A DNA stretch of 46,314 bases from Reclinomonas americana ATCC 50394. Lineage: Eukaryota. Numbering within the stretch: the stretch's first letter is position 1; each line of letters starts with the position of its first letter. Both the position numbers and the translations under genes were made by a program. The notes under the pieces were generated by a model, which saw nothing but the letters and a program-made list of their open reading frames with translations, was not told where the DNA came from and did no database searches. Shown piece after piece: positions 4,181 through 46,136 of this stretch. The stretch is taken from NCBI GenBank assembly GCA_048213135.1, contig PS015186.1, positions 128,591-174,904 on the forward strand, given 5' to 3'.

Positions 4181-4363
4181 CGAGGGGCACCCTTGATGAA
4201 AGACGGTGGTCGATCGAGAGAAAGCGCGCAAAGCGCTGCTGTCGACGAGGCAGTGCTGTCGGTGGTACGTGCACACACCGAACTCTAGCTTCTCACGCCT
4301 TGTGTGGTCGCGCAAGTGAAGCGATTGCCACTTACCGACACGTGATTGATATTGACTTGTGAT

Positions 4364-5996
4364 TCATTGCACTCGCTCTACCGCCCGCTCCACTCGCTGC
4401 CCCAGCTCGCCCGGTATCCTCCACCGACTGTCGAGTCCGGCGCGCTGCTGCGTCTGCGCGATTAACCTCGCCGCCGCGTCATCGTCGAATGTCACTGTCG
4501 CACCATACGAGAGCGAGGAGAAGTAATCGCCGCCCCACGTGTTGCGGTCGTGCTGCATGTACGTGTACAGCGCAGGCGCGTCGATCGCCAGCACCGTGTT
4601 CTCCGCGACGAGCTGCGCCACCGCGGCCGCGTCCTCGCCGCGATCCAGTGACGGGTACACAGGCATGCTCGAGCGCAAGCACAGCAGCGAGTTCTCCCAG
4701 TAGCGATACATCGGTAAGGCAACCGACGCCGACACGTGAGGCCGCACCAGCTGCAGGCGACGCAACACGCAGGCCAACACAGGCTGGAAACCGTACTTGT
4801 GCTCCTCCACCAGCCCGCGCACACTGAGCAACGCCGACAGCTGCACGTGGATGCGATCACGGTCGTACACGTCGTCGTCGTCCCACACCATCACGTAATC
4901 GCCCGAGGCCTCGCGCACCGACAAGTTGCGCATGTCGCCGAGCTTGCGCGCAGTCGCCTCGTCTGCAACCACCACACGCATGCTGGCGTGCTGATCGCCG
5001 CCAGCCACTGCCGCTGCCAGCACGCGCTGGAGGCCCGGCGCACTGGCCTCCGAGGCCACAATCAGCAACTCCCGCGCCTCGTACGTCTGCTGCATGAACA
5101 GGTAGATTGCACGCGCCGCAAGCGACAGCCGCTCAGGGCGTGAGGAGATCATGAGACATGAGACAGTCGGCATCACTCCATCCGCATCCCGCAGCACACT
5201 CGCGATTGGCGTCACAAAGCCGGCCATTGCCGCCCGACTGGTGTTCTGTGCCGGCACCGACAGCATGTACGGGATATTACTGGTGGCTGTCACGATGCAC
5301 ACACAAACACAGAGTAAGCACCGATACGTGAGCAGCGGACTAGCTACAACACAGCAACACGCGCACACCATGTCCGTCATCGACCAGCTGCAAACGGATC
5401 CGGAGAAACAATAATGAGTGCTCATCCTAATCATCATCGATATATATCAAGCGCATCTCACTCACCCACTCTTGAAAGCTCTCCTCCAGTGACGGGCACA
5501 ACTCGTTTGCTCGTTGCTGCTCTTCAGTGGAGGCCAGTGCCCACACACCGCGTTCACTCTCCAAGTTGTCCTTATTCTCACGCACAGTGGTATCCTCTGC
5601 AGATGTACTGGTGCACCTGAAGAGCAGCATGCTGCCGGTGTCCTTGTCGACGTTGCACCACAGTCGACCACACACGCGCACACTGGAGGGGAAGGAGAGG
5701 TCGGGGCACCAACAACGTCGTCTCTGTGCGTGCAAGTTGTGCGCGCGAAAAATGAGCATATTCACCGAGAGAAGAGAGGAGGAAGGTGCGCACCTCTTCG
5801 CCTGCGGAGGTGAACGCGTGGTACTTGTCTGTGTGCAAGTGTGTGTGTGAGAGAGAGCAGAGAACAAGAGTGCGCGCGCGAAAGAGTGTTTGCATCAGTC
5901 ACCATTGAAGCTAAGCACATCATGGATGCAGTGCGTGACAAGCAGCACCACTGTGATGAGGAGCAGGATGCGCGGGTTCTTCACAGTCCTCCGCAT
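4364..5996 (-). CDS. Type II membrane glycosyltransferase, family 2 (GT-A fold), ~442 aa. Exons 5996-5903, 5828-5794, 5723-5466, 5387-5369, 5286-4364
   Basis: N-terminus MRRTVKNPRILLLITVVLLVTHC is a short basic tail plus a TM segment. Catalytic motifs: PTVSCLMIS, QQTYEARELLIV, LGDMRNLSVREASGDYVMVWDDDD (DxD), RGED, LYTYMQHDRNTW. The exons join in phase (1329 nt). The 5' exons are less certain than the last exon. Confidence 0.8.
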
Positions 5997-9423: not shown

Positions 9424-9874
9424 AGAGGACGACACAAGAAGAGAGAGAGAGAGCGCATANNNNNNNNNNNNNNNNNNNNNNNNNNNNNNNNNNNNNNNNN
9501 NNNNNNNNNNNNNNNNNNNNNNNNNNNNNNNNNNNNNNNNNNNNNNNNNNNNNNNNNNNNNNNNNNNNNNNNNNNNNNNNNNNNNNNNNNNNNNNNNNNN
9601 NNNNNNNNNNNNNNNNNNNNNNNNNNNNNNNNNNNNNNNNNNNNNNNNNNNNNNNNNNNNNNNNNNNNNNNNNNNNNNNNNNNNNNNNNNNNNNNNNNNN
9701 NNNNNNNNNNNNNNNNNNNNNNNNNNNNNNNNNNNNNNNNNNNNNNNNNNNNNNNNNNNNNNNNNNNNNNNNNNNNNNNNACAGACAGACACAGGCAGAA
9801 ATGAAAAACAAAGAGACCACAGAGAGGCACACATACATACACACACGCACACATACACACCAACACACACCAAT

Positions 9875-18251: not shown

Positions 18252-18911
18252 CGGCAAGAGAACGAGGAGTACGAGGGGCAACGAAGAACAATAGAAAAGA
18301 AGCAATGAGTGCAACCGGCATCAAGCAATTTTCGTAAGCACACACACCGAAATGAGACCGTCGATGGAGGATGACTCGTGCAGGGTAAACATTGCAAACG
18401 CCGTGTGCAATAGCGACGCGCCCATTTCGGCGAGTGTCTCACCGAGGGAGTCGGGCACGGCGCGCAGAACCTGAAAAAGGAGTAAAGACGTGAGAAGCAA
18501 AGGACTGGGGGAGATGCGGATCAGGAGAGGGAAGGTCAAAAGAGCAAGAACAATGCAAGCGAATGAAAGGCAGAGACACAATAGCGACCGAGAGAGCGAG
18601 AGAGAGAGAGAGACGTGAAACATTCAGCAGTAGACACTAGAGAAGAATTGAAACAGAGAGCAACTACGGTGACAGCGAGTATGCGAGACGACAGAGAGAA
18701 GCAAAAAGTGTGAAATAGAGATGAAGAGAGGTTCAGCTGAAGGCACGTGCACCAACATGGAAGCAGAGAGCACCAACGATGACAGCGAATACTCGAGACG
18801 AAAGAGAGATGCGAAAGCGAAAGCGAAAGCAAGAGAGAGGAAGCAAGGAAAAGGAGAGGGAATTTGAAGTGAGATAGACAATGCATGCAAATCAGAAACG
18901 AAAATACAACA

Positions 18912-18945
<34 letters not shown>

Positions 18946-21900
18946 AAACAACAGAGACAGACTAAATGAACAGTAAAGGCAAGGAACCAAAGCAGAAGAG
19001 AAGAAGCAGCGAGAAAATCGAAAGACTTGCAAGACCTCCGCTCGCATTTTCCTGTTTCACGCACCTGCCCCTTGAGATCCGACAGCCAGGCGACACCATG
19101 TCGAATTGCGGCTGCGTAGTGACCGCTGGAGAGCGCCAGCGTCGTGCATGGCGCACGCAGCAACGCCATCATGTCCTCCCACACGGCACGATTGGTGACG
19201 TAGAACTTGATAATGTCGTCGCCGGCTGGTTTCAAGTACACGGAGCCCTCCGAGGCTGCGAATACAAAGAAGGGGTGTTTGTGAGAGACCGCCAAATGAC
19301 AACAAACAAGGCACGATCACAACATGGAAACCATTGTACATCAGCTTCTCCAAGTGATCGAGAAACTCGAGGAGGAGGAGCACGCGGCGCGTGGAGCCGT
19401 CGCGCACCACGACAAAGTAGTCGCCGCCGGGTTCTGCGGCGGAGCGGTGGTGCCGCACGTTGAGGCTCTTGACGGCCTCTGACAGGCGATTGAAGGATTG
19501 GGTGGCGTTGCCGAAGGCGCTTTTCAGCTTGTTGCGGACAAAGTATTGCGCCATGGCCACGGGGTCCACGTCGGGGCAGGGGAGGTCTGTACAAAGGAAA
19601 GGGGGGAAGGGGGGGAGAGGGGAAAAGGGAGAGGGGAGAGGGCAAGGGAAGAGAGAAATGAGATGAAAGAAGGAGAAGAGGAGACGACACAAATGAGAGA
19701 GCAATGAGCAGAAAGACAGAGAAGCGAGAAGGGCAGCGAATGGTAGATTTCTCGTCGATGAAACAGCGTGGAGGAAGCGATTACGAAATACAGATTGCAA
19801 CAACCGGCAAACTTGTGACAGTGCTTGCATGCGTGACAGAAAGGGAAACGCTGCAGGCATCATGGATTCCACGACAAATTGTGCACGGAATACAACAAAT
19901 AAGAAGAGACAGCAAGGACAAACAAAGAAACTGTGATCCTCTCTCCCCTCCGCCTCCTCCTCTTCCTCCTCCTCCTCCTCTCTTCCTCAACACGCACCAC
20001 CATCACTCAGGGCCGACACAAACTGCGTGAGCATGCTTGCCGCTGGCGAGGTAGACTGCACATGACATCCACTCGTGAGTCTCTTTCCACCTCGAAGGAG
20101 CAAATCGTGAGTAACGCAGCCAACCTTGCGATCTGCGTCAGTAGGGGCCCGACCGGCCAGTTCCTGCAGCTCAACATGTGGAACAAGGGAGGCGATCCGT
20201 GAGGCCATGACTTGCGGAAACTCCCCCGACGGCAGCCTGCATACAGCCATCAACATCAGTAATCCTTCACAACACACTGCACCACATATACACGCAACTT
20301 GCGGAAGGCAGTCTGCACCAACTGTTGCACAAGAGCCGTTGGCAGCGAATCCACCACATCCAACACAGCAGCCAGGTACTGCACGGCATGAGCATGTGCG
20401 CGCTCGTTCTCGAGCCCTGTCCGCAAGTGCGGGTGTTAGACTTATCACGTGCCTCCCTGCTACAAATCTACCGCGCACACCTTTCTCAATCACAGTCACG
20501 CCGACATGTTCTGCTGTCAGCGGCCGCGGCAACACATCCAACAACACAGAAAGTGGCTGATGCAGCACAGCGGCAGTGCACGAGCCGGCAAAGGAGAGGG
20601 CGGCAAGGAAGACACGCGATCGCTGCATGGGTGTCAGCCTGCTCAAGAAGTCAGGAGCAGAAATACGGGGTCCGACGCCTTGACAACACACACCATTCCA
20701 GTGAAACGACCTTGGCAGCCTCCATCATGAGCAGTGACAGCGACTCGGGCAGCAGAGGCTGCTGATCGGAGAACACCACCGAGAAGAGCACAGTGCGCAA
20801 CTGCGAGGCCCACGCGCGACACTCACCCGCCAGATTTCTGCACCGGCTCATTGAGTCGGCGAGACGACGTGCCTGCCTGCGAACAGGGACGCAACATTTT
20901 CGGTGTGGAGGGTGACGCTTGGCCGGGCACATACACGGACTCCTTGACGCCGCCCATGTCGCCCGTGTCGCCGCGATCATCACTCGGCGCACTCACCAGT
21001 CCCACCAGCGCCTCGCCCAGCAACTTGAGCACTTGCACTGCACGCGCCGGTTGTCGCGTGCACATGGACTGACCAAACACACCGACGCCCTTCGAGGCTG
21101 ACTGCTCCTCTCCACCGTCCTCCGCTTCCGCGGCCGCCGCCACCCACGGTAGTGGAACGTGGCCGCACACTTCTGCCAGAAGCGACAGGGCATTGCGCAG
21201 CTGCGGGACAGCATCGGCGTGCGTGGTCGCCGCAAACACCTCCACGAGGAAGAAGCGCACAATCTGCTCGAACGAAGAGAGACGCTGCTTGGGATGGCGG
21301 AAGCGCACCAGGTGCGTCAAGCACTGGCGAATGAGTGACACGGGTGAGAGGAGCGGGAGGCCCGGAGTGCCTGGCGCGCGAGAGGGTGAGAGAGGAGTCG
21401 AGAATGAAGGGAAGGGGGACAGCGCACTTTGCAGCAGCGTCATGTCGCCCTCCGCATCCAGCAGTCGCATGCAGTACGGCAACAAGCGCAGCAGGACGGA
21501 GACGCGAACCGGCTGCAATGCGCTCGCACGCAGCAGGGCCAGCAGGTACTGGAGGAGGAGGAGGGAAAGTGAGAGCGCGCATGGAGAAGGAGAGAGAGAG
21601 AGAGAGAGTGTCACGCACAAATTCGAGAAACTCGAGGCCACGGACGGCCAGCGGGGTCGCCAACTCGGGCGATAATTGGATGGCGATGTGGCGGAGAATG
21701 TCGGCGGCGCAGCGGTGTGCGGCGTCAGGGTAGGCGGCGAGGCAGTCGCGGAGGCAGAGATTCACTGCGTGGGAGGGGAAGGGCGAGGCAAGGGGGAGGA
21801 AGGGGGGAGGAAGGGGGGAGGAAGGGGGAAGGGAGAGAGAGGCAAACGGAGGGAATGTGAGTGAATGATGGACACTGCACGGACATGAGCGAGAGAGCAA

Positions 21901-24177: not shown

Positions 24178-24469
24178 GAGTAGTAGTACGTAGTAAGTAA
24201 GTAAGAAGAGAGAGAGAGAGAGAGACGAGAGATAGTAGTAAGTAGTAGTAGTAGTGTGTGTGTACGTACGTACGTACGTACGTAGTACGTAGGTAGGAAG
24301 GAAGGAAGGAAGGAAGGAAGGAAGGAAGNNNNNNNNNNNNNNNNNNNNNNNNNNNNNNNNNNNNNNNNNNNNNNNNNAAGGGAAACGGGAAAAGGGAAAG
24401 GTAAAGGTAAAGGTAAAGTAACGAACGAACGAACGAAGTAGTAGTACGTAGTAGTAAGTAGTAAGTAGT

Positions 24470-25398: not shown

Positions 25399-25750
25399 CA
25401 ACGTAAACANNNNNNNNNNNNNNNNNNNNNNNNNNNNNNNNNNNNNNNNNNNNNNNNNNNNNNNNNNNNNNNNNNNNNNNNNNNNNNNNNNNNNNNNNNN
25501 NNNNNNNNNNNNNNNNNNNNNNNNNNNNNNNNNNNNNNNNNNNNNNNNNNNNNNNNNNNNNNNNNNNNNNNNNNNNNNNNNNNNNNNNNNNNNNNNNNNN
25601 NNNNNNNNNNNNNNNNNNNNNNNNNNNNNNNNNNNNNNAGAAAACACGTCCGCTACCTCAAGACTAGTCAGTGTTGTCGGTTTTGATATGGTTGGACTTG
25701 GTCATCAAGACAGCTGTTGCTTTGTTGGCGGAATGAACTGTTGTTGCTCA
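25130..25750. repeat. Dispersed ~300 bp non-coding repeat, copy 1 (interrupted by (CA)n and a gap)
   Basis: gtttgcctggcttatggcctt...gccgtgtacgatcgcagaaaacgctatgcgtc...caagtgcgtcaaatccactggt...gcggtgaagatcgcagttctcg...ctccgagagcgaacacac...acttggtcatca is shared with 32385-32685. Confidence 0.85.
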
Positions 25751-28097: not shown

Positions 28098-31000
28098 TCA
28101 CTTTCCCGCTGCTCGCGCCCGCGTCGGTGACCTCGACTGCGCAGAGCCGCCTCGCGTCGCCGATTGCGGCCTGCTTCCTCCCCGTGCCTTGGGCGTGGTG
28201 CTGGCCGCCGTTGCCGCCTTGGGTGTGGTGGGCGTGGCCGGCTTGTACGCCTTGCGCTTCGTCGGCTTGTCGACCAACACCGGCTCGCACTTCACAACCA
28301 CCCGCGTTGTCGGCGAGGGAATTGGTCCGATCGCATCCGTCTCTCCCTCGTCGCCTCCAGCTGCTGTCGCCGCCGCCGATGCCACCGGCAGTGGTGGAAC
28401 GGCCACCGGCTCTGCATCCTCCTTCTGCTTCTGCTTCTTCTCGTGCTGCTGCTGTTGCTGCTGCTTGGCCTCCGCTCTCCGCTTCTTCACCATCAACAAC
28501 ACCTCCTCGTAGGTGCTCTTGGGTGGCGCGGCGGCTGGATCGTGGCGGCCCTTGCGCTGCTGCTGCTGCTGCTGAACGCCGTCGGGGGTTCGGCGTCCGC
28601 GGTCCGACGGAGCCGCCCGCACGGCATCTGGTCGCGAAAACACCCCGTGACCGGGCTTGCACTTGAAATACTGGCGACCGTCGACGGCGCCGTCGTTCTT
28701 GCCCTCGGCCGTCTCCAACTCGATGCCGACCCACACACCCGACGCAAAATCGGTCTCGCCCACAAAGCGCACACGACCAAACAACTCCTTGTTGCCGACG
28801 GCCACTCGCTCACCGACGCGCGGCACACGAGCCGATGGGTACGGCGACGTCGCACCGCCCTGTCGGCGAGCCGCCGAGGCCGCACTGCCAGTTCCACTGT
28901 TCTCCGACGTGGTGCCGTCGCGGTGGCGCGAAGCGGAGCGGGTGCGCTGGTCGTCGGCGTCGTCGGTACTGCGGCCGCGAGAGCGCGGCCGTGATCGACT
29001 GGAGGAGCGTGGCTCCCACGGCTTGGGTGTGGTCGCCAGCTGTGGGGTGCGCGGCGGCGAGCCGGTGATGATGGTGGCGTTGGCGGGAATGAGGGTGGTA
29101 ATCTCCTCCTCCTCCTCCTCCTCTTCCTCCTGCCCCGCCACCGCCGTCTCCGCGGCTGCAGTCGCGCGGTCGGGGGTCGTGCTGCGCGTGCGTTGCGATG
29201 CCCGCAACGGCGACGCCACCACGGTCTTGTGGTACGCGGAGCGTGTGGTGGACAGTGGTGAATCGAGTGCCGACTGCGAAGGCGGGGAGCGCGAGCGGTT
29301 GCCCTTTTGCTGCTGGTGCGAGCGGAGTGGGTCGAAGCGGCGAACGGCGCGATTGATGAGGCTGTATTTTCTGGCGTGTGTCCACTCGGCGCACTGGCGG
29401 AGGAGTTGTTCCTGAAGGAGGGGAGAATAAGGGGAAGGGGAATAAGGGGAAGGGGGAAAGTGGAAAGGGGGAAAAGGGGAAGGGGAAGGGGAAGGGGAAG
29501 TGAGCGAGGAATAAATGGGACTGAGGGACAAGGAGTACAGCGAGAGAGACATGGAGCACAGCGAGAGAGACATGGAGCACAGCGAGAGAGACATGGAGCA
29601 CAGCGAGAGAGACATGGAGCACAGCGAGAGAGACATGGAGCACAGCGAGAGAGACATGGAGCACAGCGAGAGAGACGTGGAGCACAGCGAGAGAGACGTG
29701 GAGCACAGCGAGAGAGACGTGGAGCACAGCGAGAGAGACGGAGCACGGCGAGAAGAAGGGGCATTGCGAGAGCGCAGGGAGCACAGTGAGAGACGGGAGC
29801 AACGTAAGAGACACAGAGCACAGCGAGAGCATGTAGCACAAAAAGAGACGCCCTTTGACAGAAAATCCATGCACAAACCATCTCTCGCACATGCTGCGCA
29901 AGTTCTCGGTCGGAATCTGTGCTCTTGGCGTCGTCGTCTTGATCTGTCGCATCCGCGCCACCGTATCCAATCGAGAAGGCGTGTGTCAGGGGCATGCGAT
30001 CGACGTCGTCTGCGTAGCGCAACAGAAGCACATTCAGACAATGACGAGAGCTTTGGATTCGTGAATGCCTTTGACATACAAACCTTCTCTCCTCGACGCA
30101 TCACCATGCATAAAACTCTGGCGCTCCGACTCTGTGACAGATCCGTCAGTCAACACGCATTCCACTCACTACCTCGCCTCAACAACGACGCACCTCGCGC
30201 CGCCGCTGCCTTCAAAGCCAAACCCTCCACGTCGACGCCACGCGGTCCGTCTGATCGGTCGACAAAACGACGCACCGATGCCAAGCGCAGCTCAATGACG
30301 GCCAGTTTGGAGATGGCGTTCTTCATCTTGCGCTTCTCCTCGGCCACACTCAACTCCAGCCACCCGACTTGCTCGGTGGCGCGGGCCCACGTGTACAAGT
30401 TCATGGCCGCGGGGCATTGGCGCTTGATGGTCTGCGCACAGAGTGAGAAAATGATGATTCGAAAGGAGCGATTGATCACCAAAGTCGTCATCACCGTCAC
30501 ATCCAGTCCGTCTTGATTAAAGAACGCCGAGACCGCGTTGAGGTCTCGCTCGGTGAGAGTGAGCGCGTCAAACTCCTCCAGCTGCGGCCACAGCGAGTCG
30601 AGATCGCTAAGAGAGTGCTTGATGTCGTCGTCGGAGATTGAGGGGCGACGGAGCAGCGAAAAGACGGCGTACATGAGCACAGTGAGGCAGTGCGGGAGGT
30701 CGGCGGTGTCGCTGCGCGAGGCCAGAGTGCGGAGATCGAGCATGTCGTCGTAGGAGAGGCAGTCGGCATCCTGCGGAAACGGGGATGAGGAAAGAGAGGG
30801 ATGGGGTGTTGAGGAAAGCAGTGATCGCTCAATACCTGCTTTGCCTCGGCCAGCGCTTGCGAGTGTGCCTGGAGTGAGCGATCGGCCACGCGGCGTTCGG
30901 CTTCTGCGCGGGCACGAAGGTGTTCCAGTTCGTCGGCAATGTGGCGAACGCGATCGGCGGGCTGTGGAGGGCGAAGGAGAAGGGGAAGTGAGCGGGAAGG

Positions 31001-31605
31001 GAGGGGGAAGGGAGGGGAAGGAGTGGCGGAGGTGAGTGGGAGAAGGAGTGGGGGAGTGGGAAGGGGAATGAGGGAGGGAGAAGGGAGTGAGTGGGGGAAG
31101 GAGGGCGGCGAGAGAGTCGAAGGGATATCGCTACAAATCGCTGCCTCCTTTGCCTGATCGCTTCCTCGTCACTCTCTCCCGGATAAACGATAAGGTGACG
31201 GATAAGGAGAGCAACGGCGAAGGATATGGCGAAGGAGGCGGAGGATAAGGCCTTGCCTTTGAACGCCTGAGTCGTTCTCTCTCAATCTCTCATGCATCTC
31301 TTCTCTCTCCATCATTCATTACTTCTGCTCTCCTCGACTCTCCCTGCTCTCTCCTCTGCTGCCCTCTCTCTCTCCTCTCCTCTCTCTCTCTCTTCCTTCC
31401 TCTCTCTCTCTTCCTCCTCTCTCTCTCTCTCTCTCCCACTAACCATCTTCTCAAACTCTCGCGGATGAATCGACATGAGCTCCTCATCAGACAGACTCTG
31501 CTCCTGTTGTTGTTGTTGCTGCTGAACAATGCGCTCGAGAGAGACATTGGCGACGGCTGCGTTGGAGCCGACGATTCCCGACGAGTAAACCCGACGCGGA
31601 AGCAT
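28098..31605 (-). CDS. CAP-Gly domain protein with an N-terminal dynein-stalk/MTBD-like domain. Exons approx. 31605-31444, 30961-30836, 30770-30495, 30431-30173, 30131-30084, 30009-29879, 29411-28098; the 3' end may continue
   Basis: CAP-Gly VGERVAV..GRVRFVGETDFASGVWVGIELETAEGKNDGAVDGRQYFKCKPGHGVF (~28620-28825) with an intact GKNDG. The upstream exons join in phase; the 41-nt intron 30132-30172 is the weakest junction. The tail is rich in Ser/Pro/Arg/Lys. Confidence 0.8.
29533..29746. repeat. Intronic 21-bp tandem repeat (GGAGCACAGCGAGAGAGACAT), ~10 copies
   Basis: Directly visible; lies in the intron between 29412 and 29878. Confidence 0.95.
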
Positions 31606-32384
31606 TCTCTCTGAGAGCGACAGTGTGTGCGAGAGAGTGTGTGTGTGTGTGTGTGTGTGAGTTGAGCGTGTGCTGTGTGGGAAGAGTGAGGGAGAGAGTC
31701 ACCTCACAAGCACAAACACGACAAACAAGAAATCTTGCGCGGCTCTCAATCGTGTCCGAAAACTCGGATACTGGATCGACAAAACCATGCATCGACACTA
31801 CACGACAACAACAACAACAACAGCAGCTTTACTAATCCAAACAGCATGATGATCACCCTCTTGAGTGAGCACCAGAAACTCAGACATCACGGAAAAAGCG
31901 AGAAAAAATCGAGATGGCTAATGCTGGCGTTTCTGCAAGAGAAACCACGGTTCATGACAAGCATGATCACGGGCATGGACCTTGACTGTAGCCAGAGGAG
32001 CTTCTGTGCGTATGAGCTTGAGCTCGGAATTCGCAGCGAACAGTTGAATTTAAAGAAAAAAACAGTGACCTGCAGAATGATCACCACCGTAGAGTACCGA
32101 CCAGGTATACCTAGGTGGCTTGCTCTCCGAAGAGAGGAAGCCAACAGAAGCGAACCGAAAGGAGAGGACACAATCGTTAGGGTGTCCTCGACTGAGTGTT
32201 CGCAACTCTCCTCTCACGTATTGGAGCAGCTTCCGCGCGCGCTGCGGTACGAACGCGGCACGGCCGCGAACAGCAACAACTATACAGCTGCAACAACAAC
32301 AACAAATTCATTTACTAACAAACAAGCAACAGCTGCATGATGATCATTATCTCGAAAGCACGGCTTCCTTTTTGCCACCACTCT

Positions 32385-32685
32385 TTTCTTGCATCTCGGA
32401 CCCGCACCGGCTTTGCTTGGTTTGCCTGGCTTATGGCCTTTCCCGAATTCGATGGGCCGTGTACGATCGCAGAAAACGCTATGCGTCTATTCAAGTGCGT
32501 CAAATCCACTGGTCAACCGCGCTGACGCGGTGAAGATCGCAGTTCTCGGCTTGTTCGGAGCTCCGAGAGCGAACACACCAACTCAGGAGAAAACCTGCTG
32601 CTGCCTCGATATTTTGAACATGGGTGAACTTGGTCATCAGGACCAGCTTTTGCTTGTTTGTTGGTGAATGAATTGTTGTTGCTTG
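32385..32685. repeat. Dispersed ~300 bp non-coding repeat, copy 2
   Basis: Direct-orientation match to 25130-25750, without the CA expansion. Confidence 0.85.
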
Positions 32686-33086
32686 TTTCAATTGTTGTTG
32701 TTGTGGTCGTCATGCCTGCAAGCCACTTGGATTCTTTCCACTCGAGAAACGATGCGCACGTGCTCAATCATGTTCACTTCGCAGTCGTGGAGAGAGAGAG
32801 AGANNNNNNNNNNNNNNNNNNNNNNNNNNNNNNNNNNNNNNNNNNNNNNNNNNNNNNNNNNNNNNNNNNNNNNNNNNNNNNNNNNNNNNNNNNNNNNNNN
32901 NNNNNNNNNNNNNNNNNNNNNNNNNNNNNNNNNNNNNNNNNNNNNNNNNNNNNNNNNNNNNNNNNNNNNNNNNNNNNNNNNNNNNNNNNNNNNNNNNNNN
33001 NNNNNNNNNNNNNNNNNNNNNNNNNNNNNNNNNNNNNNNNNNNNNNNNNNNNNNNNNNNNNNNNNNNNNNNNNNNNNNNNNNNNNN

Positions 33087-33089
<3 letters not shown>

Positions 33090-33130
<41 letters not shown>

Positions 33131-36100
33131 ACGCCCTTGAACTGGAAGTGGATGAAAAAAAAGGAGAGTAACGTGGACAGAGTGGGAAGAGCGCGAGAAC
33201 CAAGCATGGACGCCTGCGAATTCTCCTCTCGCCACAAAAGATCAGCACGAAAACAGATACAGCAAATCCGCAGTAGCCGCAACCTTGGTGCCGGCAGTGT
33301 TGGAGGCCATCGAAGTCCACGCGCGACTGGAGTCACGAGCGGTCCACGTCACACCAGAGTCGGTGGAGGTGTAGATCTGACCGCCGTTCACAGCAGCCAC
33401 CAGCTTGACGCCGTCACCACTGGACGTCACGGCCGACCAACCGCGATTTGAATCACGCGGCGTCCACGTCACACCCGAGTCGGAGGAGGTGTAGATCTGG
33501 CCGCCTTGCACAAAAGTCACCAGCTTGGTACCGTCACTGCTGGAGGCCACTCCACGCCAGTTGCGGCTAGAATCACGTGGCGTCCACGTCACGCCAGAGT
33601 CTGTGGAGGTGTAGATCTGGCCACTTGGTACGGCAGCCACCAGCTTGGTGCCGTCACTGCTGGAGGCCACTGCCCACCAGCCACGACTGGAATCACGTGG
33701 CGTCCACGTCACGCCCGAGTTGGTGGAGGTGTAGATCTGGCCACCAGGAACCGCAGCCACCAATTTGGTGCCATCGCTGCTGGAGGCCACCGATCGCCAG
33801 TCACGACTGGAATCACGCGGCGTCCACGTCACGCCCGAATCAGCAGAGGTGTAGATCTGGCCGCTGAACACACCAGCCACCAGCTTGGTGCCGTCACTGC
33901 TCGAGGTCACTGATAGCCAGTTGCGACTGATCTCACGAGCCACCCACGTCACGCCAAAGTCAGCGGTGGTGTACATTTGACCACCGACCACAGCCAGCAG
34001 CTTCGATCCGTCACTGTTGGAGGTCACTTTTTGCCAGCTCGCGGTCGCCTGCACTCCCTGGGACAACGCAGTCCACGTCGCGCCAGAGTCAGCGGAGATG
34101 TAGATCTGACCTATAGCCACCATAGCCACCAGTTTGGTGCCGTCACTGCTGGAGGTCACCGCACTCCACTGGCGAGTGGAATCACGAGGCGTCCACGTCA
34201 CACCCGAGTCGGTGGATGTGTAGAGCTGGCCTGAACTCACAGCCGCCACTGGAGGTCACTGAAATCCAGACGCGACTGGAATCACGAGGCGTCCACGTAA
34301 CACCGGAGTCGGTGGAGGTGTAGATCTGACCGAGTTGCGCCACAGCCATAAGCTTGGTGCCGTCACTGCTTGAGGCCACCGAGTACCAGTTACGACTAGA
34401 ATCACGAGGCGTCCACGTTACACCAGAGTCGGTGGAGGTGTAGATCCGACCGCTAACCACGGCCGCCACCAGCTTGGCGCCGTCGCTGCTGGAGGCCACG
34501 GAGGTCCAGTTGCGACTGGAATCGCGAGCAGTCCATGTCACACCAGAGTCGGTGGAGGTGTAAAGCTGGCCACCCTGGAACGCCGCCACCAGCTTGCTGC
34601 CGTCACTGCTGGAGGCCACAGAATACCAATTGCGACTGGAGTCACGAGCTGTCCACGACACGCCCGAGTCAGCAGAGGTGTAAATCTGATCATTTTGCGT
34701 CACTGCCACGAGCTTCGTGCCGTCACTGCTAGAGGCAACCCCACGCCACTGGCGATTGGAATCACGAGCGATCCATGTCACGCCCGAGTTCGTCGAAGTG
34801 AAGATCTGACCATTACTCACAACAGCCACTAGCTTGGTGCCGTCACTGCTGGAGGCCACTGAAAACCAGTTGCCAGCGAATCCAAGAGTACTGCTGACCG
34901 TGCAGGCCGAGCTGGCGCACGCGGATCCTGTGCATGACCACAAGTCAGCATTCACGAACCGCAAATATCATAAACACCCATAACTCACCAGTCCATGGAC
35001 TTGTACAGAGACATGTGCCATTAGCGTTACAGGTTCCGTTGCCAGAGCACGTGGCAGTGGGGCTGCAGTTGCAGCTGGCATTGGTGTAGTCGCCAGTGCA
35101 CAGACACGTGCCATCAGTCTTGCACGTTCCGTTGCCAGAGCAGGTGATGCTTGGACTGCAGTTGCAGTTGGCATTGGTGTAGTCACCCATGCACAGACAC
35201 GTGCCGTCAGATTTGCACGTTCCGTGACCGGAGCATGAGACAGAGGGACTGCAGTTGCAGCTGGCGTTGACGTAGTCGCCCGTGCACTGGCACGTGCCGT
35301 CTGGGTTGCATGTTCCGTGACTGGAGCAGGTGGTGGCCGCCACACAGTTTGAAGTCACAATACTACTACACCCCGCACCGGTGAAATCAGCGCTGCACTG
35401 GCATGTACCGTCAGTCTTGCACGTGCCGTTGCCCGAGCACGTCGTGTCGGCCACGCAGTTCACGTTGCACGACGCCCCGTAATTGTCAGCGTCACACTGG
35501 CACGAACCGTCAGTCTTGCACGTTCCGTGACTGGAGCAGGTGATGGAGGGACTGCAGTTGCAATCGCTGTTGGTGTAGTCGCCCGAGCACGTGCATGACC
35601 CGTCGTTGTTCAGCGTGCCGTGGCCCGAGCACGGAGCGCACGTGCTGACATCCAGCGTGTAGATCTGACCCTCGTACACACCCGCCACCACCTTGGTGCC
35701 GTCGGCGTTGGAGGCCACAGCAAACCAGTTGCGACTCGAGTCGCGCGCCGACCACGACACACCCGAGTCGCTCGACGTGTAGATCTTGTCGTGGCCGACC
35801 ACAGCCACCAGCTTCGTACCGTCGCTGCTCGAGGCCACCGATCGCCACAACCGCGCCGACTCGCGTGCCGTCCACGTCGCACCGGAATCAATGGAGGTGT
35901 AGATCTGGCCACCGTGAGTGACGGCCACCAGCTTTGTACCGTCGCTGCTGGAGGCCACACCGACCCACGGTCGACTGGAGTCGCGGGCCGTCCATGTCGC
36001 GCCGGAATCGGTGGAGGTGTAAATCTGGCCACCGTTCACCGCCGCCACCAACTTGGCGCCGTCGCCACTGGAGGCCACGGCAACCCACTGACGATGAGAG

Positions 36101-38484
36101 TCCCGCGGCGTCCACGTCGCACCAGAGTCGGTGGACGTGTAGATCGAGTCACCCACGGCCGCAGCCACCAGCTTGGTGCCATCGTCACTGGAGGCCACCG
36201 CCGACCACGCTTGCACTGTAGCGCGTGGCGTCCACGACGCGCCTGAATCGGTGGAGGTGTAGATCTGACCGCCACAGTACACGCAGGCCGCCAACTTGGT
36301 GCCGTCGCTGCTGGAGGCCACGCTGACCCAGTATCGGTTCGTATCGCGCGGCGTCCAAGTCGCACCCGAGTCGGTGGAGGTGTAGATACGGCCGAATTCG
36401 ACCACGGCCGCCAGCTTGGTGCCGTCGGCGTTGGAGGCGACCGACCACCAAATGCGTTTCGACTCATGGGGAACAGCCGTGTCGTCGGTATCCATGGGTA
36501 GTGCGTGCTCCCGGCGACTGCGATGTGCGTCGTGGTGTGCTGTTTTGTGGCGCAAGTGGCGAGTTGACCACCTGCAATGGCTATCAGTGGCCATGACCAG
36601 TCAGACAACTTGGAGTATGAAAAGACACAATGCTTGCTCATCGCCACAAACAACGCAACTGCCATTGACTTGCGAGACGTGGACGGGGACATGCACCGAT
36701 GCCGCAGTGGGCATGGCCATGGTAACCACCAGCACCAGCAGCACCATCAAGGCGACAGACACACTTGTCCATGACATCGGTATCTTGACTGCCTTCAATC
36801 TCATTGTTGAGTGTTTCTTGCGCCAGGTACTGTAGAAACACACGAGCACAAGCAGGCGAGTGAGAAACAAACAACGCGCAAAACCGAGGGACGCGTTGTC
36901 ATGGAGATGACGCGCGGGAGACATGTACAACACTCAAGAACTGTGCCCCCTTCTCGACGGAATTCAGAAGGAGGATGAAGTGCACAGGGAGGGAAAGAGG
37001 GAGAGCGAGAGAGAGAGAAGGGGACAGGGAGGGAAAGGGAGAGGTACAACGACAACAAGAAGGACAACGAGAAAAAAGGGAACAAGAAGAAGAAGAAGAA
37101 GTAGGAGGCGGAAGAGGCAGCGCATGAGCAAGAGTGAGCGTGTCTCTCTGCATGTGCTCCATACAGCACGTGTGCAGTTGTAAACAGCGCGCGAAAGTGG
37201 TGGAATGTTGCGTATGTTCGAGATCGATGAGCAGCGTTGTTTGATATTGTTGTGCTCCTCACCGATAATGCAGAACAGACTCGTGTGCTCTGAGTGGCGG
37301 AGAAGAACAGAAGAAATGAGGTGGCAAGCGAGTTGTGAGTGCGCACACGCGAGAGGTGAAGAAATGAAAAGACGAAGCTCACCAAAAGGCACCCCGCACA
37401 CGCTCCGCCCACCATCCTTTGACACGGGGTCGCGGCCACCAATATGAAGGAGGACGGCTCTGGCCCACGCAGGCATCACCTCCAGACGACGCCACAGTTG
37501 CCGATATCGCTGCGAAACAAAATGATGGTTATTTCACACTTCCGAGAAGACCACTGCAACTGCAACGCCCAAAAGCCAGTCCCTCACCGGGAGCGAAAAA
37601 GTAACGGCATGTTGACATCACCCAGGAATGCTCAGTGCTCTGTGGAGCAAACAAGGTGACATGAGACTGCTCTTGGCGTTCAGGTTCATCTCACTCACAC
37701 GCCAAAATGTTGATCTTGCGCTGCGCAGTGGGCGAATCTGCATTCGCCTCCTCGTACCTGTCATGTTAACCTCGAAGCAGAGGTCTGTGCAGAGACTCAT
37801 CAGTGAAACAAAAACATCGCATCAATACAACAACTACTGATCACCAAAAATATTCAAAAACACAACCCAAGATGACCAAAAAGAACCCCGTCAACCCTTT
37901 TCTTCACACTCACCTTCCTCGAATGACTAAGCGCTGCGCCCGCGTGGTGGCCAGGAGTCAAAGATCCACATCGCGTGGCAAGCGTTGGGTGAATTCATGA
38001 AAGTCACATAAATGATGAATCTATCGCATTGGCAAGTGGAACGTGAGGCAGGGTGTATCGCTTGTTGCAGGCTGTGGGAGTCAGATGTTGCCCGCAGCAG
38101 AGTCACAAACAAGCACAAAAAGAAAGTTGCAAAGAAGATGAGTGCCCACAAGAACCCAGCGGACAATGACCAAAGAGTACACAACACCGTGAGGCAGCGG
38201 CGTGGATCAAGGCCCTCGTGGCTCAAGAGGCTCCCTGAGTGCGACGCTGCGTGTGATGGAAGCCATGCAACAGACGGCAGCGGCGGGTGTGAGTCTGTCC
38301 GTGGTCAAACAGCCACGCAAGCGCAGAGCAAGCAGAGCCACATCCGGTTATTGAAGCCCGACGACGCTGTGCACCGCCTTGAGTCACAAAACAACAAGTA
38401 TGTCTGAGACAGCAGCTTGTTAGCTCGCTCCACACACACCTTCTCAGTGACGAACATACAGCAGAACAAAGGGAAGCGATGCAT

Positions 38485-38547
<63 letters not shown>

Positions 38548-39227
38548 ACTACGTAACGTACGTACGTACGTACGTACGAACGAACGTAACGAACGGAACG
38601 AACGGTAACGAACGAACGAACGAACGACGAACGACGACGACGACGACGAGAGAGAGNNNNNNNNNNNNNNNNNNNNNNNNNNNNNNNNNNNNNNNNNNNN
38701 NNNNNNNNNNNNNNNNNNNNNNNNNNNNNNNNNNNNNNNNNNNNNNNNNNNNNNNNNNNNNNNNNNNNNNNNNNNNNNNNNNNNNNNNNNNNNNNNNNNN
38801 NNNNNNNNNNNNNNNNNNNNNNNNNNNNNNNNNNNNNNNNNNNNNNNNNNNNNNNNNNNNNNNNNNNNNNNNNNNNNNNNNNNNNNNNNNNNNNNNNNNN
38901 NNNNNNNNNNNNNNNNNNNNNNNNNNNNNNNNNNNNNNNNNNNNNNNNNNNNNNNNNNNNNNNNNNNNNNNNNNNNNNNNNNNNNNNNNNNNNNNNNNNN
39001 NNNNNNNNNNNNNNNNNNNNNNNNNNNNNNNNNNNNNNNNNNNNNNNNNNNNNNNNNNNNNNNNNNNNNNNNNNNNNNNNNNNNNNNNNNNNNNNNNNNN
39101 NNNNNNNNNNNNNNNNNNNNNNNNNNTTAGTTACGTCGTCGTCCTCCACCACACCTACCTTACCTACTACGTACGGAACCGAACAACTAACGACGACGAA
39201 CGAAACGGAAAAGGGAAACGGACGTAG

Positions 39228-40019: not shown

Positions 40020-43000
40020 CAGAGAGAGGGAGAGAGGGAGAGAGAGAAAGAAAGAGAGCACACATGCGCAGACGGTCGATGAAGCACGAAGAGAAAAAGG
40101 AGAGAAAAAACAGCGCGAGATCCAAACACAAACGCCTGCGCGTTCTCTCGCCGCAAGAAGATCAACACGAAAACAGATACAGCTTATCTGCAGTAGCCGC
40201 GACCTTGGTGCCGTCACTGTTGGAGGCCACCGAATTCCAGTTGCGATTAGAATCGCGAGCCGTCCACGTCACGCCAGAGTCCGTGGAGGCGTAGATCTGA
40301 CCACCGTTGATCACCGCCACCAGCTTGATGCCGTCACCACTGGATGTCACGACCGACCAGCCGCGATTCGAGTCACGAGCTGTCCAAGTCACGCCAGAAT
40401 CGGTGGAGGTGTATAGCTGACCAGAGAACACTGCTGCCACCAGTTTGGTGCCGTCACTGCTGGAGGCCACTGAGTACCAGTTACGAGAGGAATCGCGAGC
40501 AGTCCACGTCGCGCCAGAGTCAGTGGAGGTGTAGGCCTTTCCACCCTGAACAACAGCCGCCAAGTTAACGCCGTCGCTGCTGGAGGCCACCGACACCCAC
40601 CCACGACTGGAATCACGGGCAGTCCACGTCACGCCAGAGTCAGTGGAGGTGTAGATCAGACCATTGTTCACCGCAGCCACGAGCTTGGTGCCGTCTCCGC
40701 TGGAGGCCACTGACCACCAATTGCGATTGGAGTTGCGAGCCGTCCACGTCACGCCCGAGTCAGCCGAGGTGTAGATCTGACCGTTGGTCACCGCAGCCAC
40801 CAACTTTGAACCGTCACTGTTGGAGGCCACTGATTTCCACTGACGACCGATATCACGAGCCACCCAAGTCACGCCAAAGTCAGTAGTCGTGAACATCTGG
40901 CCACTGACCACAGCCAGTAGCTTCGACCCGTCACTGTTGGAGGTCACTAGCTGCCAGTTTGCGGTCGCCTGCACTCCCTGGGACACTCCTGTCCACGTCA
41001 CACCAGAGTCAGCGGAGGTGTAGATCTGATCTATAGCCGCCACAGCCACCAACTTGGTGCCGTCACTGCTGGAGGCCACCCTACGCCATCCACGATTGGA
41101 ATCACGAGGAGACCACGTCACACCAGAGTCCGTGGAGGTATATACCTGGCCTCCAGTCACAACAGCCACCAACTTGGTGCCGTCACTGCTGGAGGTCACG
41201 GAGTACCAGTTGCGATTGGAATCATGGGCGGTCCACGTCACGCCAGAGTCGGTGGAGGTGTAGATCTGGCCACCCAAAACACCAGCCACCAGCTTGGTGC
41301 CGTCGCTGCTGGAGGCCACACACTCCCAGCTTCGAGTGGAATCACGAGGTGTCCACGTAACACCAGAGTCGGCAGAGGTGTAGATCTTCTCGGTACCTGC
41401 AGCGGCCACCAACTTGGTGCCGTCACTACTCGAGGCAATTGACAGCCAGAGGCGATTGGAATCACGCGCCGTCCACGTCAACCCAGAGTCCGTGGAGGTG
41501 TACAGCTGACCGCCTTGTGCACCTGCCACCAGCTTGGTACCGTCACTGCTGGAGGCCACAGCCCCCCAGCCGCGAACAGACTCCTGAGCCGTCCACGTCA
41601 CGCCAGAGTCGGTGGACGTGAGAATCTGGCTAGGGAACGCCACAGCCACCAGCTTGGTACCGTCACTGCTGGAGCCCACCCCACGCCACGCGCGGTTGTT
41701 TTCGCGAGCTGTCCACGTCGCACCAGAGTCGGTGGAGGTGTAAAGTTTTCCATTGTCCGCTCCAGTCACCAACTTGGTGCCGTCGCTGTTGGAGGCCACC
41801 GGGTACCAACTGGCAGCGAATCCTACAGTAGAATTGCCCGTGCAGCCCGCACTGGCGCACGCGGATCCTGTCCACGATGGCAAGTCAGTATTCACGCTGA
41901 GCAATAATGAAGGACAAGCATCACTCTCACTCACCAGTCCATGGACTTGTGCACTGGCATGTCCCATCTGTCTTGCACGTTCCATTGCGAGAGCAGGTGA
42001 TGCTGGGACTGCAGTTGCAGTTGGCATTGGTATAGTCGCCCGTGCACTGGCACGTTCCATCGGTCTTGCACGTTCCATGGCTGGAGCAGGTGATGCTGGG
42101 ACTGCAGTTGCAGCTGCTATTCGTGTAGTCGCCCGTACACTGGCAAGCGCCGTCAGTCTTGCACGTTCCGTGACCGGAGCATGAGACAGAGGGACTGCAG
42201 TTGCAGCTGGCGTTGACGTAGTCGCCGCTGCACTGGCATGTACCGTCTGGGTTGCAAGTTCCGTGACTGGAGCAGGTGGTGGCCGCCACACAGTTTGAAG
42301 TCACAATACTACTACACCCCGCACCGGTGAAACCAGCACTGCACTGGCATGTACCGTCAGTCTTGCACGTGCCGTTGCCCGAGCACGTCGTTGCCGCCAC
42401 ACAGTTCACATTGCACGACGCCCCGTAATTGTCAGCGTCACACTGGCACGAACCGTCAGTCTTGCACGTTCCGTGACTGGAGCAGGTGACAGACGGACTG
42501 CAGTTGCAATCGCCGTTGGTGTAGTCGCCCGTACACGTGCATGAACCATCGTTGTTCAGCATGCCGTGGCCCGAGCACGGAGCGCACGTGCTGACATCCA
42601 GCGTGTAGATCTGACCCTCGTACACACCCGCCACCACCTTCGTGCCGGAGACGTCGGAGGCTACCGCAAACCAGTTCCGATTCGAGTCGCGCGCCGACCA
42701 CGTCACACCCGAGTCACTCGACGTGTAGATCTTGTCGTGACCGACCACAGCCACCAGCTTCGTACCGTCGCTGCTCGAGGCCACCGATCGCCACAACCGC
42801 GCCGACTCGCGTGCCGTCCACGTCGCACCGGAATCAATGGAGGTGTAGATCTGGCCACCGTGAGTGACGGCCACCAGCTTTGTACCGTCGCTGCTGGAGG
42901 CCACACCGACCCACGGTCGATTGGAGTCGCGTGCCGTCCACGTCGCGCCCGAGTCGGTGGAGGTGTAAATCTGGCCACCGTTCACCGCCGCCACCGACTT

Positions 43001-45442
43001 GGCGCCGTCGCCGCTGGAGGCCACGGCAACCCACTGACGATGAGAGTCCCGCGGCGTCCACGTCGCACCAGAGTCGGTGGACGTGTAGATCGAGTCACCC
43101 ACGGCCGCAGCCACCAGCTTGGTGCCATCGTCACTGGAGGCCACCGCCGACCACGCTTGCACTGTAGCGCGTGGCGTCCACGACGCGCCTGAATCGGTGG
43201 AGGTGTAGATCTGACCGCCACAGTACACGCACGCCACCAGCTTGGTGCCGTCGCTGCTGGAGGCCACGCTGACCCAATACCGGTTCGTGTCGCGCGGCGT
43301 CCACGTTGCGCCCGAGTCGGTGGAGGTGTAGATGCGACCGAACTCGACCACGGCCGCCAGCTTGCTGCCGTCGGCGTTGGAGGCCACCGACCACCAGATG
43401 CGCTTCGACTCGTGGGGAATGGCGGTGCAAGTAGTGAGTTGGTTGCCTGCGATGGCTATCAGTGGCCATGACCAGCCAGGTAAGATTGCGTTCGAAAAGA
43501 CACTGATTGCTTGCTCATCGCCACAAGCAACGCAACTGCCATTGACTTGCGAGACGTGGACGGGGACAGGCACCGAAGCCGCAGTGAGCATGGCCGTGGT
43601 CACCACCAGCACCAGCAGCACCATCATGGCGACTGGCACGCTGGTCCATGACACAGGTATCTTGACTGCCTTCGAGCTCATAGTTGACTGTTTTTTTGCG
43701 CCAGGTGCTGCAGAAACACACGAGCACAAAGCAGGCGAGTGAGAAACAAAAGAAGCGCGCTGAAAACGCGGGAGGGAAACCCGTTGTGCTATCATGCAGA
43801 CGACGCGCGCAGCGTGCGTTCGCGAGAGACATGATACATGTACAACTCAAAAGTTTGTGCCCCCTTCTCGATTGAAATCAGAAGGAGGAAAGAGCAGAGG
43901 GAGGGAAAGAGGGAGAGAGAGAGAGAGAAGGGCCGGGAGAGGGGAAGGGACAGGTGCAAGAACAAGGACAACAAGTAAGAGAACGAGAAGAAAGGGAACA
44001 AGAAGAAGAAGAAGAAGTAGGAGGCGGAAGAGGCAGCGCATGAGCAAGAGTGAGCGTGTCTCTCTGCATGTGCACATACAGCACGTGCGCAGTTGCAAAC
44101 AGCGCGCGAAAGTGGTGGAATGTTGCGTGTGTTCGAGATCGATGAGCAGCGTTGTGTGATATTGTTGTGCTCCTCACCGATAATGCAGAACAGACTCGTG
44201 TGAACTGAGTGGCGAAGAAGAACAGAAGAAATGAGGTGGCAAGCGAGTTGTGAGTGCGCACACGCGAGAGGTGAAGAAATGAAAAGACGAAGCTCACCAA
44301 AAGGCACCCCGCACACGCTCCACCCATCCTTTGACACGGGGTCGCGGCCAGCGACATGAATTAGGACGGCTCTGGTCCACGCAGGCATCACCTCCAGACG
44401 ACGCCACAGTTGCCGATATCGCTGCGAAACAAAATGATGGTTATTTCACACTTCCGAGAAGACCACTGCAACTGCAACGCCCAAAAGCCAGTCCCTCACC
44501 GGGAGCGAAAAAGTAACGGCATGTTGACATCACCCAGGAATGCTCAGTGCTCTGTGGAGCAAACAAGGTGACATGAGACTGCTATCTTGGCGTTCAGATT
44601 CATGCCACTCACACGCCAAAATGTTGATCTTGCACTACGCAGTGGGCGAATCTGCATTCGCCTCCTCGTACCTGTCATGTTAACCTCGAAGCAGAGGTCT
44701 GTGCAGAGACTCATCAGTGAAACAAAAACATCGCATCAATACAACAACTACTGATCACCAAAATATTCAAAAACACAACCCAAGATGACCAAAAAGAACC
44801 CCGTCAACCCTTTTCTTCACACTCACCTTCCTCGAATGACAAAGCACCACACCAGTGTGATGACCAGGAGTCAAAGATCCACATCGCGTGGCAAGGGCAG
44901 CAGAGTGACAGTCCTCAGAAACGCTGAATCTATCATGACTTGGCCAGTGGAAAGCCGGGCATCTCGCTTGTTGCAGGCTGTGAGAGACAGAAGTTGCCTG
45001 CAGCCTTCTCACAAAAAAGCATGGAAACATAAGTTGCAAAGAAGATGAATGCCCAGAACAACCCTATCAACGATGACCGAAAAAGAAACACTCAACTCAC
45101 CTCCCCGAAACAGCAGCTTGGCGTGGTGGCCAGGTGTCATGGGCGTTGTCGCTCAAGAGGCTCGCTGACTGCGACGCTGCGTGTGATGGAAGCGATGCAA
45201 AAGGCGCCAGCAACGGAAGTGAGCCTGTCCGTGTTCAACAGCCACGCCTCCTCGCAAGCGCAGAGCAAGCAGGTCCGGATCCACATCCGGTGATAGTAGA
45301 GCCCGACGACGCTCGGATAATCTGCGCACCACCTTGAGTGACAAAAGCAAGAAGCATGCCGGAGACAGCAGCTTGATAGCTCGAGCTACACACTCATAAC
45401 TTCTCAGTGAAGAACATAACAACAGCAGAACAAACGATGCAT

Positions 45443-45670: not shown

Positions 45671-46136
45671 CTCTCCGTGAACTCACTCTCTCTCTCTCTC
45701 TNNNNNNNNNNNNNNNNNNNNNNNNNNTGATGTCGCGCACGCGCTTGCAAGAATCACATGCATGCAAGTCGCCTCTTGCATCCATTTCAATTTCCGATAT
45801 CGGTATCAATCGTTTTGTCGACCGTTTGCAAGCAAGCGCCACCGGTCAATCCTCGGTCCTGTTCGCCCATCGCGCAGACGCCCCCTTCCTCCTTCACTTT
45901 TCCGCGTTTGCTCATCTGCACACACTTTTTGGCGCCAAATAATTTTACCGGCGAAACGCCACTCCGCCAAAACCGGCAATGATGGTGTGACTCATGCGGA
46001 AAACGCTCACTTGCTCCCCCTTCCGCGACAGAGCACAACCACACGCACAGCTGCTCTTTCACACTTGCACGCAGCAGCAGTGTGCACGTATCATCACTAG
46101 ATCTCCCCTACCTCTCTCTCTACTCGCGCGCGTGAG

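Follow-up and report, generated by a model that had tools for sequence, protein, structure and literature searches.

To our knowledge, the dynein microtubule-binding domain (MTBD) is known in nature only at the stalk end of a motor of ~4500 residues. Among CAP-Gly proteins, p150Glued carries an N-terminal CAP-Gly domain and basic region followed by dynactin-specific coiled coils and the Pfam Dynactin domain, and CLIPs have one or more N-terminal CAP-Gly domains, a long central coiled coil, C-terminal zinc knuckles and an EEY/F end. In the literature, the MTBD is described as six short helices (H1-H6) lying between two coiled-coil strands (CC1 and CC2) and binding at the tubulin intradimer interface, and engineered, motor-less fusions of seryl-tRNA synthetase with the MTBD are reported to have decorated microtubules (PMC6629372). 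Other papers describe a basic region directly after the CAP-Gly domain of p150Glued (PMC5831668), and KIF13B as a kinesin-3 with a C-terminal CAP-Gly domain (PMC10404244). Here, we describe a gene in 46,314 nucleotides (nt) of DNA from Reclinomonas americana ATCC 50394 (assembly GCA_048213135.1, PS015186.1:128,591-174,904, forward strand; hereafter the window), whose predicted product appears to combine a dynein-type stalk tip with a CAP-Gly domain in a chain that lacks a motor.

The gene model occupies the minus strand from 31605 to 28098 and consists of six exons, which join into 2268 nt with a single terminal stop and encode 755 amino acids (aa). Exons 3 and 4 are very probably homologous to the dynein MTBD, as judged from profile and protein-language-model comparisons, and the CAP-Gly half is ordinary and secure. 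Frame and splice logic suggest that both belong to one chain, and we lean, with moderate confidence, towards a non-motor microtubule-associated protein made of a dynein-derived tip hairpin, a linker, a CAP-Gly domain and a basic tail. Known from a single locus, this domain architecture is probably genuine and out of the ordinary. Its parts are as follows, in window coordinates.

31605-31444, minus: exon 1 (aa 1-54), with the start ATG at 31605-31603 and a short, acidic N-terminus with poly-Q; donor GTTAGT after 31444
30961-30836, minus: exon 2 (aa 55-96), 126 nt, phase 0, with acceptor CAG and donor GTATTG; proposed CC1
30770-30495, minus: exon 3 (aa 97-188), the first part of the dynein-MTBD-like globule, with predicted helices matching H1-H5
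30494-30432, minus: intron 3, 63 nt, GTGATG...GCGCAG; in frame, free of stops and non-coding
30431-30173, minus: exon 4 (aa 189-274), the last MTBD-like helix with a conserved Trp, the proposed CC2 (~205-246) and a Gly/Pro break
after 30173, minus: donor GTAGTG of the 259-nt exon 4
30009-29879, minus: exon 5 (aa 275-318), a 131-nt acidic linker with acceptor CGCAG, donor GTTTGT and a Met at aa 280
29411-28098, minus: exon 6 (aa 319-755), holding linker, CAP-Gly domain and basic tail; stop TGA at 28100-28098
29411-28817, minus: linker part of exon 6 (aa 319-516), rich in Ser, Thr, Pro and Arg, with a poly-Glu run; probably disordered, judging from composition
28816-28620, minus: CAP-Gly domain (aa 517-582), with the GKNDG motif; PF01302
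28619-28098, minus: C-terminal tail (aa 583-755), basic and rich in Lys, Arg, Gln, Pro and Thr, ending at the stop

Relationship of exons 3 and 4 to the dynein stalk tip

Searches of the Protein Data Bank (PDB) covered 177,635 distinct sequences, with rows reported to E<=10. The profile used, A1, was built by aligning overlapping window references so that the 21 columns derived from intron 3 became insert states; its 204 positions include ~28 of non-coding read-through 5' of exon 3, and one Thr at the junction is missing. In hmmsearch, A1 found a sole sequence at E<=10, namely 8glv_Co, the 4513-residue Chlamydomonas inner-arm I1 dynein-1-beta heavy chain, which matched in one stretch with 24.5 bits and E 1.9e-4. 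Profile positions 34-170 align with chain residues 3191-3320 (~130 residues), ending near aa 239 of the gene model, at window position 30279. The match starts 71% along 8glv_Co, which is the stalk-tip location in dynein heavy chains. About 41 identities were counted on the match line (~30% identity), and the motifs common to both proteins include LRRP closing the second helix, LSD and L.EFD in mid-domain, and Ala-Ala...Trp..Ala.Glu..Gly in the last helix.

The 63-nt intron interrupts this resemblance. A 199-aa piece consisting of exon 3, the retained intron and exon 4 returned 8glv_Co in phmmer as the third of three rows, with 12.8 bits and E 0.73, in two collinear fragments, the first pairing query 14-83 with chain 3193-3260 and the second query 117-164 with chain 3273-3320. 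Removing the 21 intron-derived residues makes the query gap between these fragments equal to that in 8glv_Co. The original prediction had stated that excision of the intron would give the expected dynein spacing, and this is indeed the case: by our own count, with the lost Thr restored, 42 residues separate EFD from the Trp of the last helix in both proteins. Intron 3 also stands apart in composition, with a GC content of 0.46 versus 0.61-0.63 in the adjoining exons. The other two rows of the intron-retaining search, both Tic22 (E 0.44 and 0.53), were rejected because their alignment crosses intron-derived residues.

A method unlike HMMER points to the same family. When protein-language-model features were compared in the ESM Atlas, 30 of 30 matches belonged to PF12777-bearing clusters (top score 0.93; 185, 187 and 177 of 256 features shared); a search of the Atlas that skipped the PF12777 clusters gave no usable named match. 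The strength with which we assert homology derives from the fact that the dynein family had been named beforehand, and that these two unlike methods each return it alone. The stalk-tip assignment of exons 3 and 4 in the original prediction is thereby supported, and the sequence quoted there agrees with the per-exon translations of the spliced exons.

The sequence further suggests the helical arms that a stalk tip would be mounted on. On the CC1 side, a heptad-like helix free of Pro and Gly spans ~aa 53-100, with a crude heptad score of 0.5-0.7 in 28-residue windows over aa 57-93. Its counterpart on the CC2 side, likewise free of Pro and Gly, spans ~aa 201-248, scores 0.68-0.78 at aa 201-221 and has an isoelectric point (pI) of 10.4. 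Two flanking helices of similar length are what an antiparallel hairpin needs, and we propose that they form one. A low-confidence structural model of exon 3 contains four helices, at exon residues 7-19, 22-40, 47-66 and 74-86, and the helix count and order in the models are no more than compatible with H1-H6.

CAP-Gly domain and basic tail

The C-terminal half contains the GKNDG CAP-Gly domain and basic tail that had been recognized from the sequence at the outset. The domain matches PF01302 over the full profile (positions 1-65 of 65) with E 2.2e-24 and 85.6 bits, above the gathering score of 26.5, and CAP_GLY is the only Pfam family that exon 6 gives at E<=10, dynactin- and CLIP-specific families being absent. 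Searched against the PDB with phmmer, it matches 35 sequences at E<=0.001. The best of these is KIF13B (2cow_A, 1.5e-20); dynactin p150Glued chains follow at ~1e-19, and CLIPs are also among the closest solved relatives. Alignments with KIF13B and p150 place GKNDG, and the aromatic and Gly positions around it, in register. The tail has a pI of 10.5, with 33 Lys and Arg against 16 Asp and Glu, 45 Ser, Thr and Pro and one Cys, and its C-terminal residues are basic rather than EEY/F.

Observations that weigh against the favoured reading

A number of results count against a motor-less stalk tip joined to a CAP-Gly domain. PF12777 was absent at E<=10 for the 326-aa read-through open reading frame (ORF), the 199-aa piece, exon 3 and exon 4, so that the match to the Pfam 'MT' family anticipated by the original prediction fails on these intron-retaining and exon-split translations. 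In all of the Pfam, phmmer and word-seeded queries, the 63-nt intron, which lies immediately ahead of the best-conserved helix, was either translated along with its flanks or was the point at which the translation was cut. Neither exon 3 alone nor exon 4 alone found dynein in the PDB. A1 itself matched only one of the many PDB dynein chains, and part of its score may therefore reflect a shared Ala-rich composition. The Atlas 'recognition' value of 1381, against the 2300 usual for known families, is rated by the tool as weak evidence.

Broader searches were equally unrewarding. Against 1.84 billion representatives, phmmer with the 199-aa piece found no dynein and returned one protein only, a 2916-aa bacterial-type repeat protein that aligned in 8 stretches, partly over intron-derived residues, and was judged spurious. 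No orthologue was recognized among the word-seeded candidates, which comprised 3035 longer proteins, 7999 for exon 6 and 485 of near length (E<=10). Furthermore, tblastn confirmed none of the 271 pattern stretches that metagenome scanning gave for the MTBD-like piece, nor any of the 594 for the CAP-Gly piece. None of these searches yielded an orthologue that would show the architecture to be conserved.

Structure prediction does not add to the case. The AlphaFold2 single-sequence models are poor, with predicted local distance difference test (pLDDT) scores of 49.3 (199-aa piece) and 59.3 (exon 3), and in Foldseek searches with these two models 0 of 441 and 0 of 327 matches reached E<=0.001, with no dynein among the matches listed. 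The matches, among them formin FH2 and MIT three-helix bundles, had E>0.2 throughout and were not interpretable. Finally, the joins from exon 4 to exon 5 and on to exon 6 are predicted from frame and splice sites.

Charge is a further point of concern. In dynein, basic residues on the MTBD helices that face tubulin underlie docking at the intradimer interface. The tip-like domain has a pI of 4.2, with 9 Lys and Arg against 21 Asp and Glu, while the aligned stretch of 8glv_Co is roughly balanced to slightly basic by our own count. The Lys-Lys that opens H1 in 8glv_Co aligns with Tyr-Asp here; by comparison, Lys-Arg stands before the last helix in the alignment of A1 with 8glv_Co. The microtubule surface is described as electronegative (PMC6629372), and an acidic tip therefore argues against dynein-style docking.

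Alternative explanations

Could the resemblance to dynein be a coincidence, with exons 3 and 4 forming a lineage-specific helical domain unrelated to dynein, in what would be a CAP-Gly protein with a coiled-coil N-terminus? The unmatched PF12777 profile, the single PDB dynein match of just 24.5 bits, the low Atlas recognition value, the poor models that let Foldseek give no confirmation of the fold, and an acidic charge that differs from the aligned dynein stretch would all be in keeping with that. We nevertheless consider coincidence quite improbable. The family was named before searching and then returned alone by HMMER, as the only match at E<=10 among all PDB sequences and where the stalk tip lies in a chain of 4513 aa, and by language-model features, in 30 of 30 matches with none after exclusion of PF12777. 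The rise of the match from 12.8 bits (E 0.73) to 24.5 bits (E 1.9e-4) upon intron removal is moreover what homology predicts, and the like length of the flanking helices suits a stalk hairpin. True homology could still be without function if a dynein heavy-chain fragment had been duplicated beside or into a CAP-Gly gene and were decaying there without selection as a relic that forms no functional domain. The searches made found no orthologues, and the domain has diverged strongly, with ~30% identity to its best dynein match, and is depleted of basic residues, as such a relic might be. A relic so diverged would, however, be expected to bear stops or frameshifts, whereas the exons are all open, the ten splice sites are canonical and the hydrophobic-core motifs common with dynein are retained. 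The GC content at third codon positions (GC3) of exons 3 and 4 (0.80 and 0.78) matches that of the CAP-Gly exon (0.78) and exceeds that of every intron. Decay is thus the least probable of the explanations considered.

A different type of objection concerns the gene rather than the domain, as two adjacent genes may have been joined by the model: one for a ~281-aa mini-stalk protein, encoded by exons 1-4 up to the TGA at 30152-30150, and one for a CAP-Gly protein starting at the Met at aa 280. Read-through beyond 30173 meets a stop after 7 codons, an in-frame Met does lie inside exon 5, and the 163-nt spacer between them (30172-30010; GC 0.50, no codon periodicity) fits an intron or an intergenic gap alike. 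On the other hand, the stop and the exon 5 Met are separated by only ~155 nt, compared to ~1.6 kb of intergenic region upstream of the gene; the spacer begins with GT and ends with CAG, as do the four other introns; the 131-nt exon 5 precisely compensates the 259-nt exon 4; and at least one other in-frame route leads from a phase-0 GTGCGT donor after 30276 directly to exon 6. Two genes seem to us improbable, if less so than coincidence or decay, and a single chain with a stalk-tip-like and a CAP-Gly domain is the reading pursued below.

Exon structure and reading frame

The exon structure that underlies the single chain is internally consistent. All 10 of 10 splice sites in the six-exon model are canonical, every exon is open, and an in-frame stop sits 31 codons upstream of the start ATG at 31605-31603. 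The five introns, of 482, 65, 63, 163 and 467 nt in order from exon 1 to exon 6, all have the form GT...CAG. GC3 is 0.63-0.80 in exons versus 0.39-0.67 in introns. The gene is free of runs of N, the nearest being at 25410-25638 and 32804-33086.

As the original prediction had it, the dynein-like and CAP-Gly parts share a frame, and this is literally true: exons 3, 4 and 6 lie in one genomic frame that is interrupted only by the TGA at 30152-30150. An in-frame join of exons 3 and 4 to exon 6 nevertheless needs the 131-nt exon 5, and the frame is restored exactly by the 390 nt of exons 4 and 5 together (259 + 131). The CAP-Gly exon also depends on what precedes it. Its first Met is exon residue 307 and the domain occupies exon residues 199-264, so that, with no Met before the domain, the exon needs exons upstream.

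Other joins may be used as well. Exon 4 holds a second GTGCGT donor after 30194, in the same phase as the chosen donor, which could give an alternative isoform, and use of the GTGCGT donor after 30276 would lead straight into exon 6 in frame, without exon 5. The exon 6 frame by itself shows a 683-aa ORF at 28098-30149. This was ruled out as a single exon, its upstream half consisting of repeat and CT-rich sequence with a GC3 of 0.39; the repeat is a 21-nt unit present ~15 times with 87% matches (29523-29829, in intron 5), and the ORF, which extends through the intron as far as the stop closing the frame of exons 3 and 4, is misleading because this repeat is stop-free in the exon 6 frame. Intron 1 (30962-31443, 482 nt) is nearly all simple sequence, GA-rich and then CT-rich on the coding strand, with several arrays detected by TRF, and simple repeats of this type fill introns and flanks throughout the region.

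Proposed working

In the favoured reading, the N-terminal third of the protein would be a hairpin, with a CC1 of ~45 residues, the MTBD-like globule and a return CC2 of ~40 residues. Such a stalk tip, severed from the AAA+ ring, would most likely have been captured when part of an axonemal dynein heavy-chain gene was duplicated. A long, presumably disordered linker rich in Ser, Pro and Arg would join it to the CAP-Gly domain and the basic tail, and it is mainly through the latter two that the protein would attach to microtubules. Candidate ligands of the CAP-Gly domain would be EB proteins or the EEY/F ends of tyrosinated alpha-tubulin, and the tail, being basic, may bind the acidic tubulin tails. 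The dynein-derived tip would then serve as an accessory second head, held ~5-6 nm out on the hairpin.

What this head might do is constrained by its charge. An acidic head could have an altered or weak affinity for the lattice, or could dock on a basic partner, possibly the protein's own tail or CC2. Because the head is strongly acidic, either of these seems to us more likely than occupancy of the dynein site with dynein-like affinity. The original prediction, which proposed a microtubule cross-linker, a plus-end tether or a competitor for the dynein site, went further in suggesting that the head still occupies the dynein site, and we regard this stronger idea as unlikely, though not negligible. 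Somewhat less likely again is a fuller version, in which a stalk tip exapted outside any dynein persists as a free-standing mini-stalk that docks at the tubulin intradimer site. With a long, flexible linker connecting this head to the CAP-Gly domain and basic tail, the protein would then cross-link microtubules as a static, two-headed element or slow dyneins by contending for their track.

Genomic neighbourhood

In a dynein heavy chain, the stalk is flanked by a ring of six AAA+ modules with P-loops. No such ring accompanies the tip here and unrelated genes lie on both sides, so that the protein cannot be counted as a dynein heavy chain. The original prediction had noted the absence of an AAA ring, and this holds within the window: none of its six frames, over 46 kb, contains the Walker-A pattern G..G.GK[ST], and the 19 neighbouring ORFs that were run against Pfam include no dynein or AAA family. 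The MTBD-like domain likewise has no second copy within the window.

Upstream of the start codon, ~1.6 kb of low-GC sequence (31606-33241) separates the gene from its same-strand neighbour at 33242-36600, which encodes a BNR/sortilin plus teneurin-EGF protein. This gene and another at 40162-43846, both on the minus strand and each possibly a gene part only, have BNR/Asp-box and Sortilin-Vps10 repeats ahead of teneurin-type EGF domains. They resemble paralogues in tandem, encoding a repeat protein that is secreted or lies at the cell surface. Downstream, at 18624-19986 on the minus strand, two ORFs match consecutive parts of SMG1 (PF15785, E 1.4e-5 and 1.4e-3, below the gathering score), which suggests a long, multi-exon SMG1-like gene. 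Further along, one ORF of the pair at 4364-5446 (minus) and 3021-4196 (plus) has a family-2 glycosyltransferase domain (E 8.7e-7), and the other has leucine-rich repeats (E 3.8e-7).

The window as a whole is eukaryotic in character, with short GT-AG introns, GC-rich exons, CT/GA simple repeats and eight runs of N. These runs, which total 1917 bases (590-1069, 2252-2310, 9460-9780, 24329-24377, 25410-25638, 32804-33086, 38657-39126 and 45702-45727), mark the assembly as a draft. The run at 32804-33086 falls in the putative promoter region of the gene and has GA/CT simple repeats on either side.

Comparison with known systems

The original prediction knew of no described protein that combines an MTBD with a CAP-Gly domain. 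In the full-text literature searched, of which excerpts were available, neither a motor-less dynein MTBD nor an MTBD with a CAP-Gly domain was found; domain-architecture databases were outside its scope, and a prior annotation in some proteome is possible. The mentions of PF12777 in that literature were genomics papers that describe no motor-less MTBD protein. TTLL11, called 'MTBD-like' in the excerpts, was taken as unrelated.

If the tip still docks at the tubulin intradimer site, the MTBD would prove to be a portable module in evolution, and not in engineered fusions only. A natural, motor-less copy would show how an MTBD behaves without ATP-driven control of registry and would be a ready-made probe for the dynein binding site. 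It would also exemplify how exon capture can build a new microtubule-associated protein from two microtubule-binding systems. Should the acidic tip have lost microtubule binding, a conserved fold would have been repurposed, which would be less striking and still new for this fold.

The likeness to the dynein stalk tip is collinear over ~130 residues, covering the globule and the start of CC2, and extends to heptad-like helices on both sides. The protein differs from a dynein heavy chain in having no AAA+ ring, linker or tail, and in its 755 aa versus ~4500, and its coiled coil, at ~40-45 residues per strand, is much shorter than the dynein stalk. The globule departs from the dynein MTBD in a six-residue insertion after the first helix, in its net acidic charge and in leaving the Pfam model unmatched.

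The other half invites comparison with p150Glued, whose CAP-Gly domain it resembles at ~1e-19 and in which the domain is, as here, directly followed by a basic stretch rich in Ser, Thr and Pro, the same order as at the p150 N-terminus. This order is all that the two have in common, and the protein is not p150Glued: the module is C-terminal here, the coiled coil is a dynein-like hairpin rather than p150 CC1, and there is no dynactin Pfam domain. Nor is it a CLIP, having a single CAP-Gly domain at aa 517-582 of 755, a basic C-terminus and no CLIP Pfam family. KIF13B provides the best CAP-Gly match and a similar layout, with the CAP-Gly domain C-terminal to a different microtubule-binding module; in KIF13B this other module is an active kinesin motor, and here it would be a motor-less dynein-type tip. 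The engineered fusions of seryl-tRNA synthetase also present a motor-less MTBD on a short antiparallel coiled coil. They are artificial, carry native, non-acidic MTBDs and have their registry fixed by the fusion partner, whereas the ends of the hairpin are free here. By analogy, the closest counterpart in working would be such a seryl-tRNA synthetase-MTBD fusion joined to a p150-like CAP-Gly and basic module.

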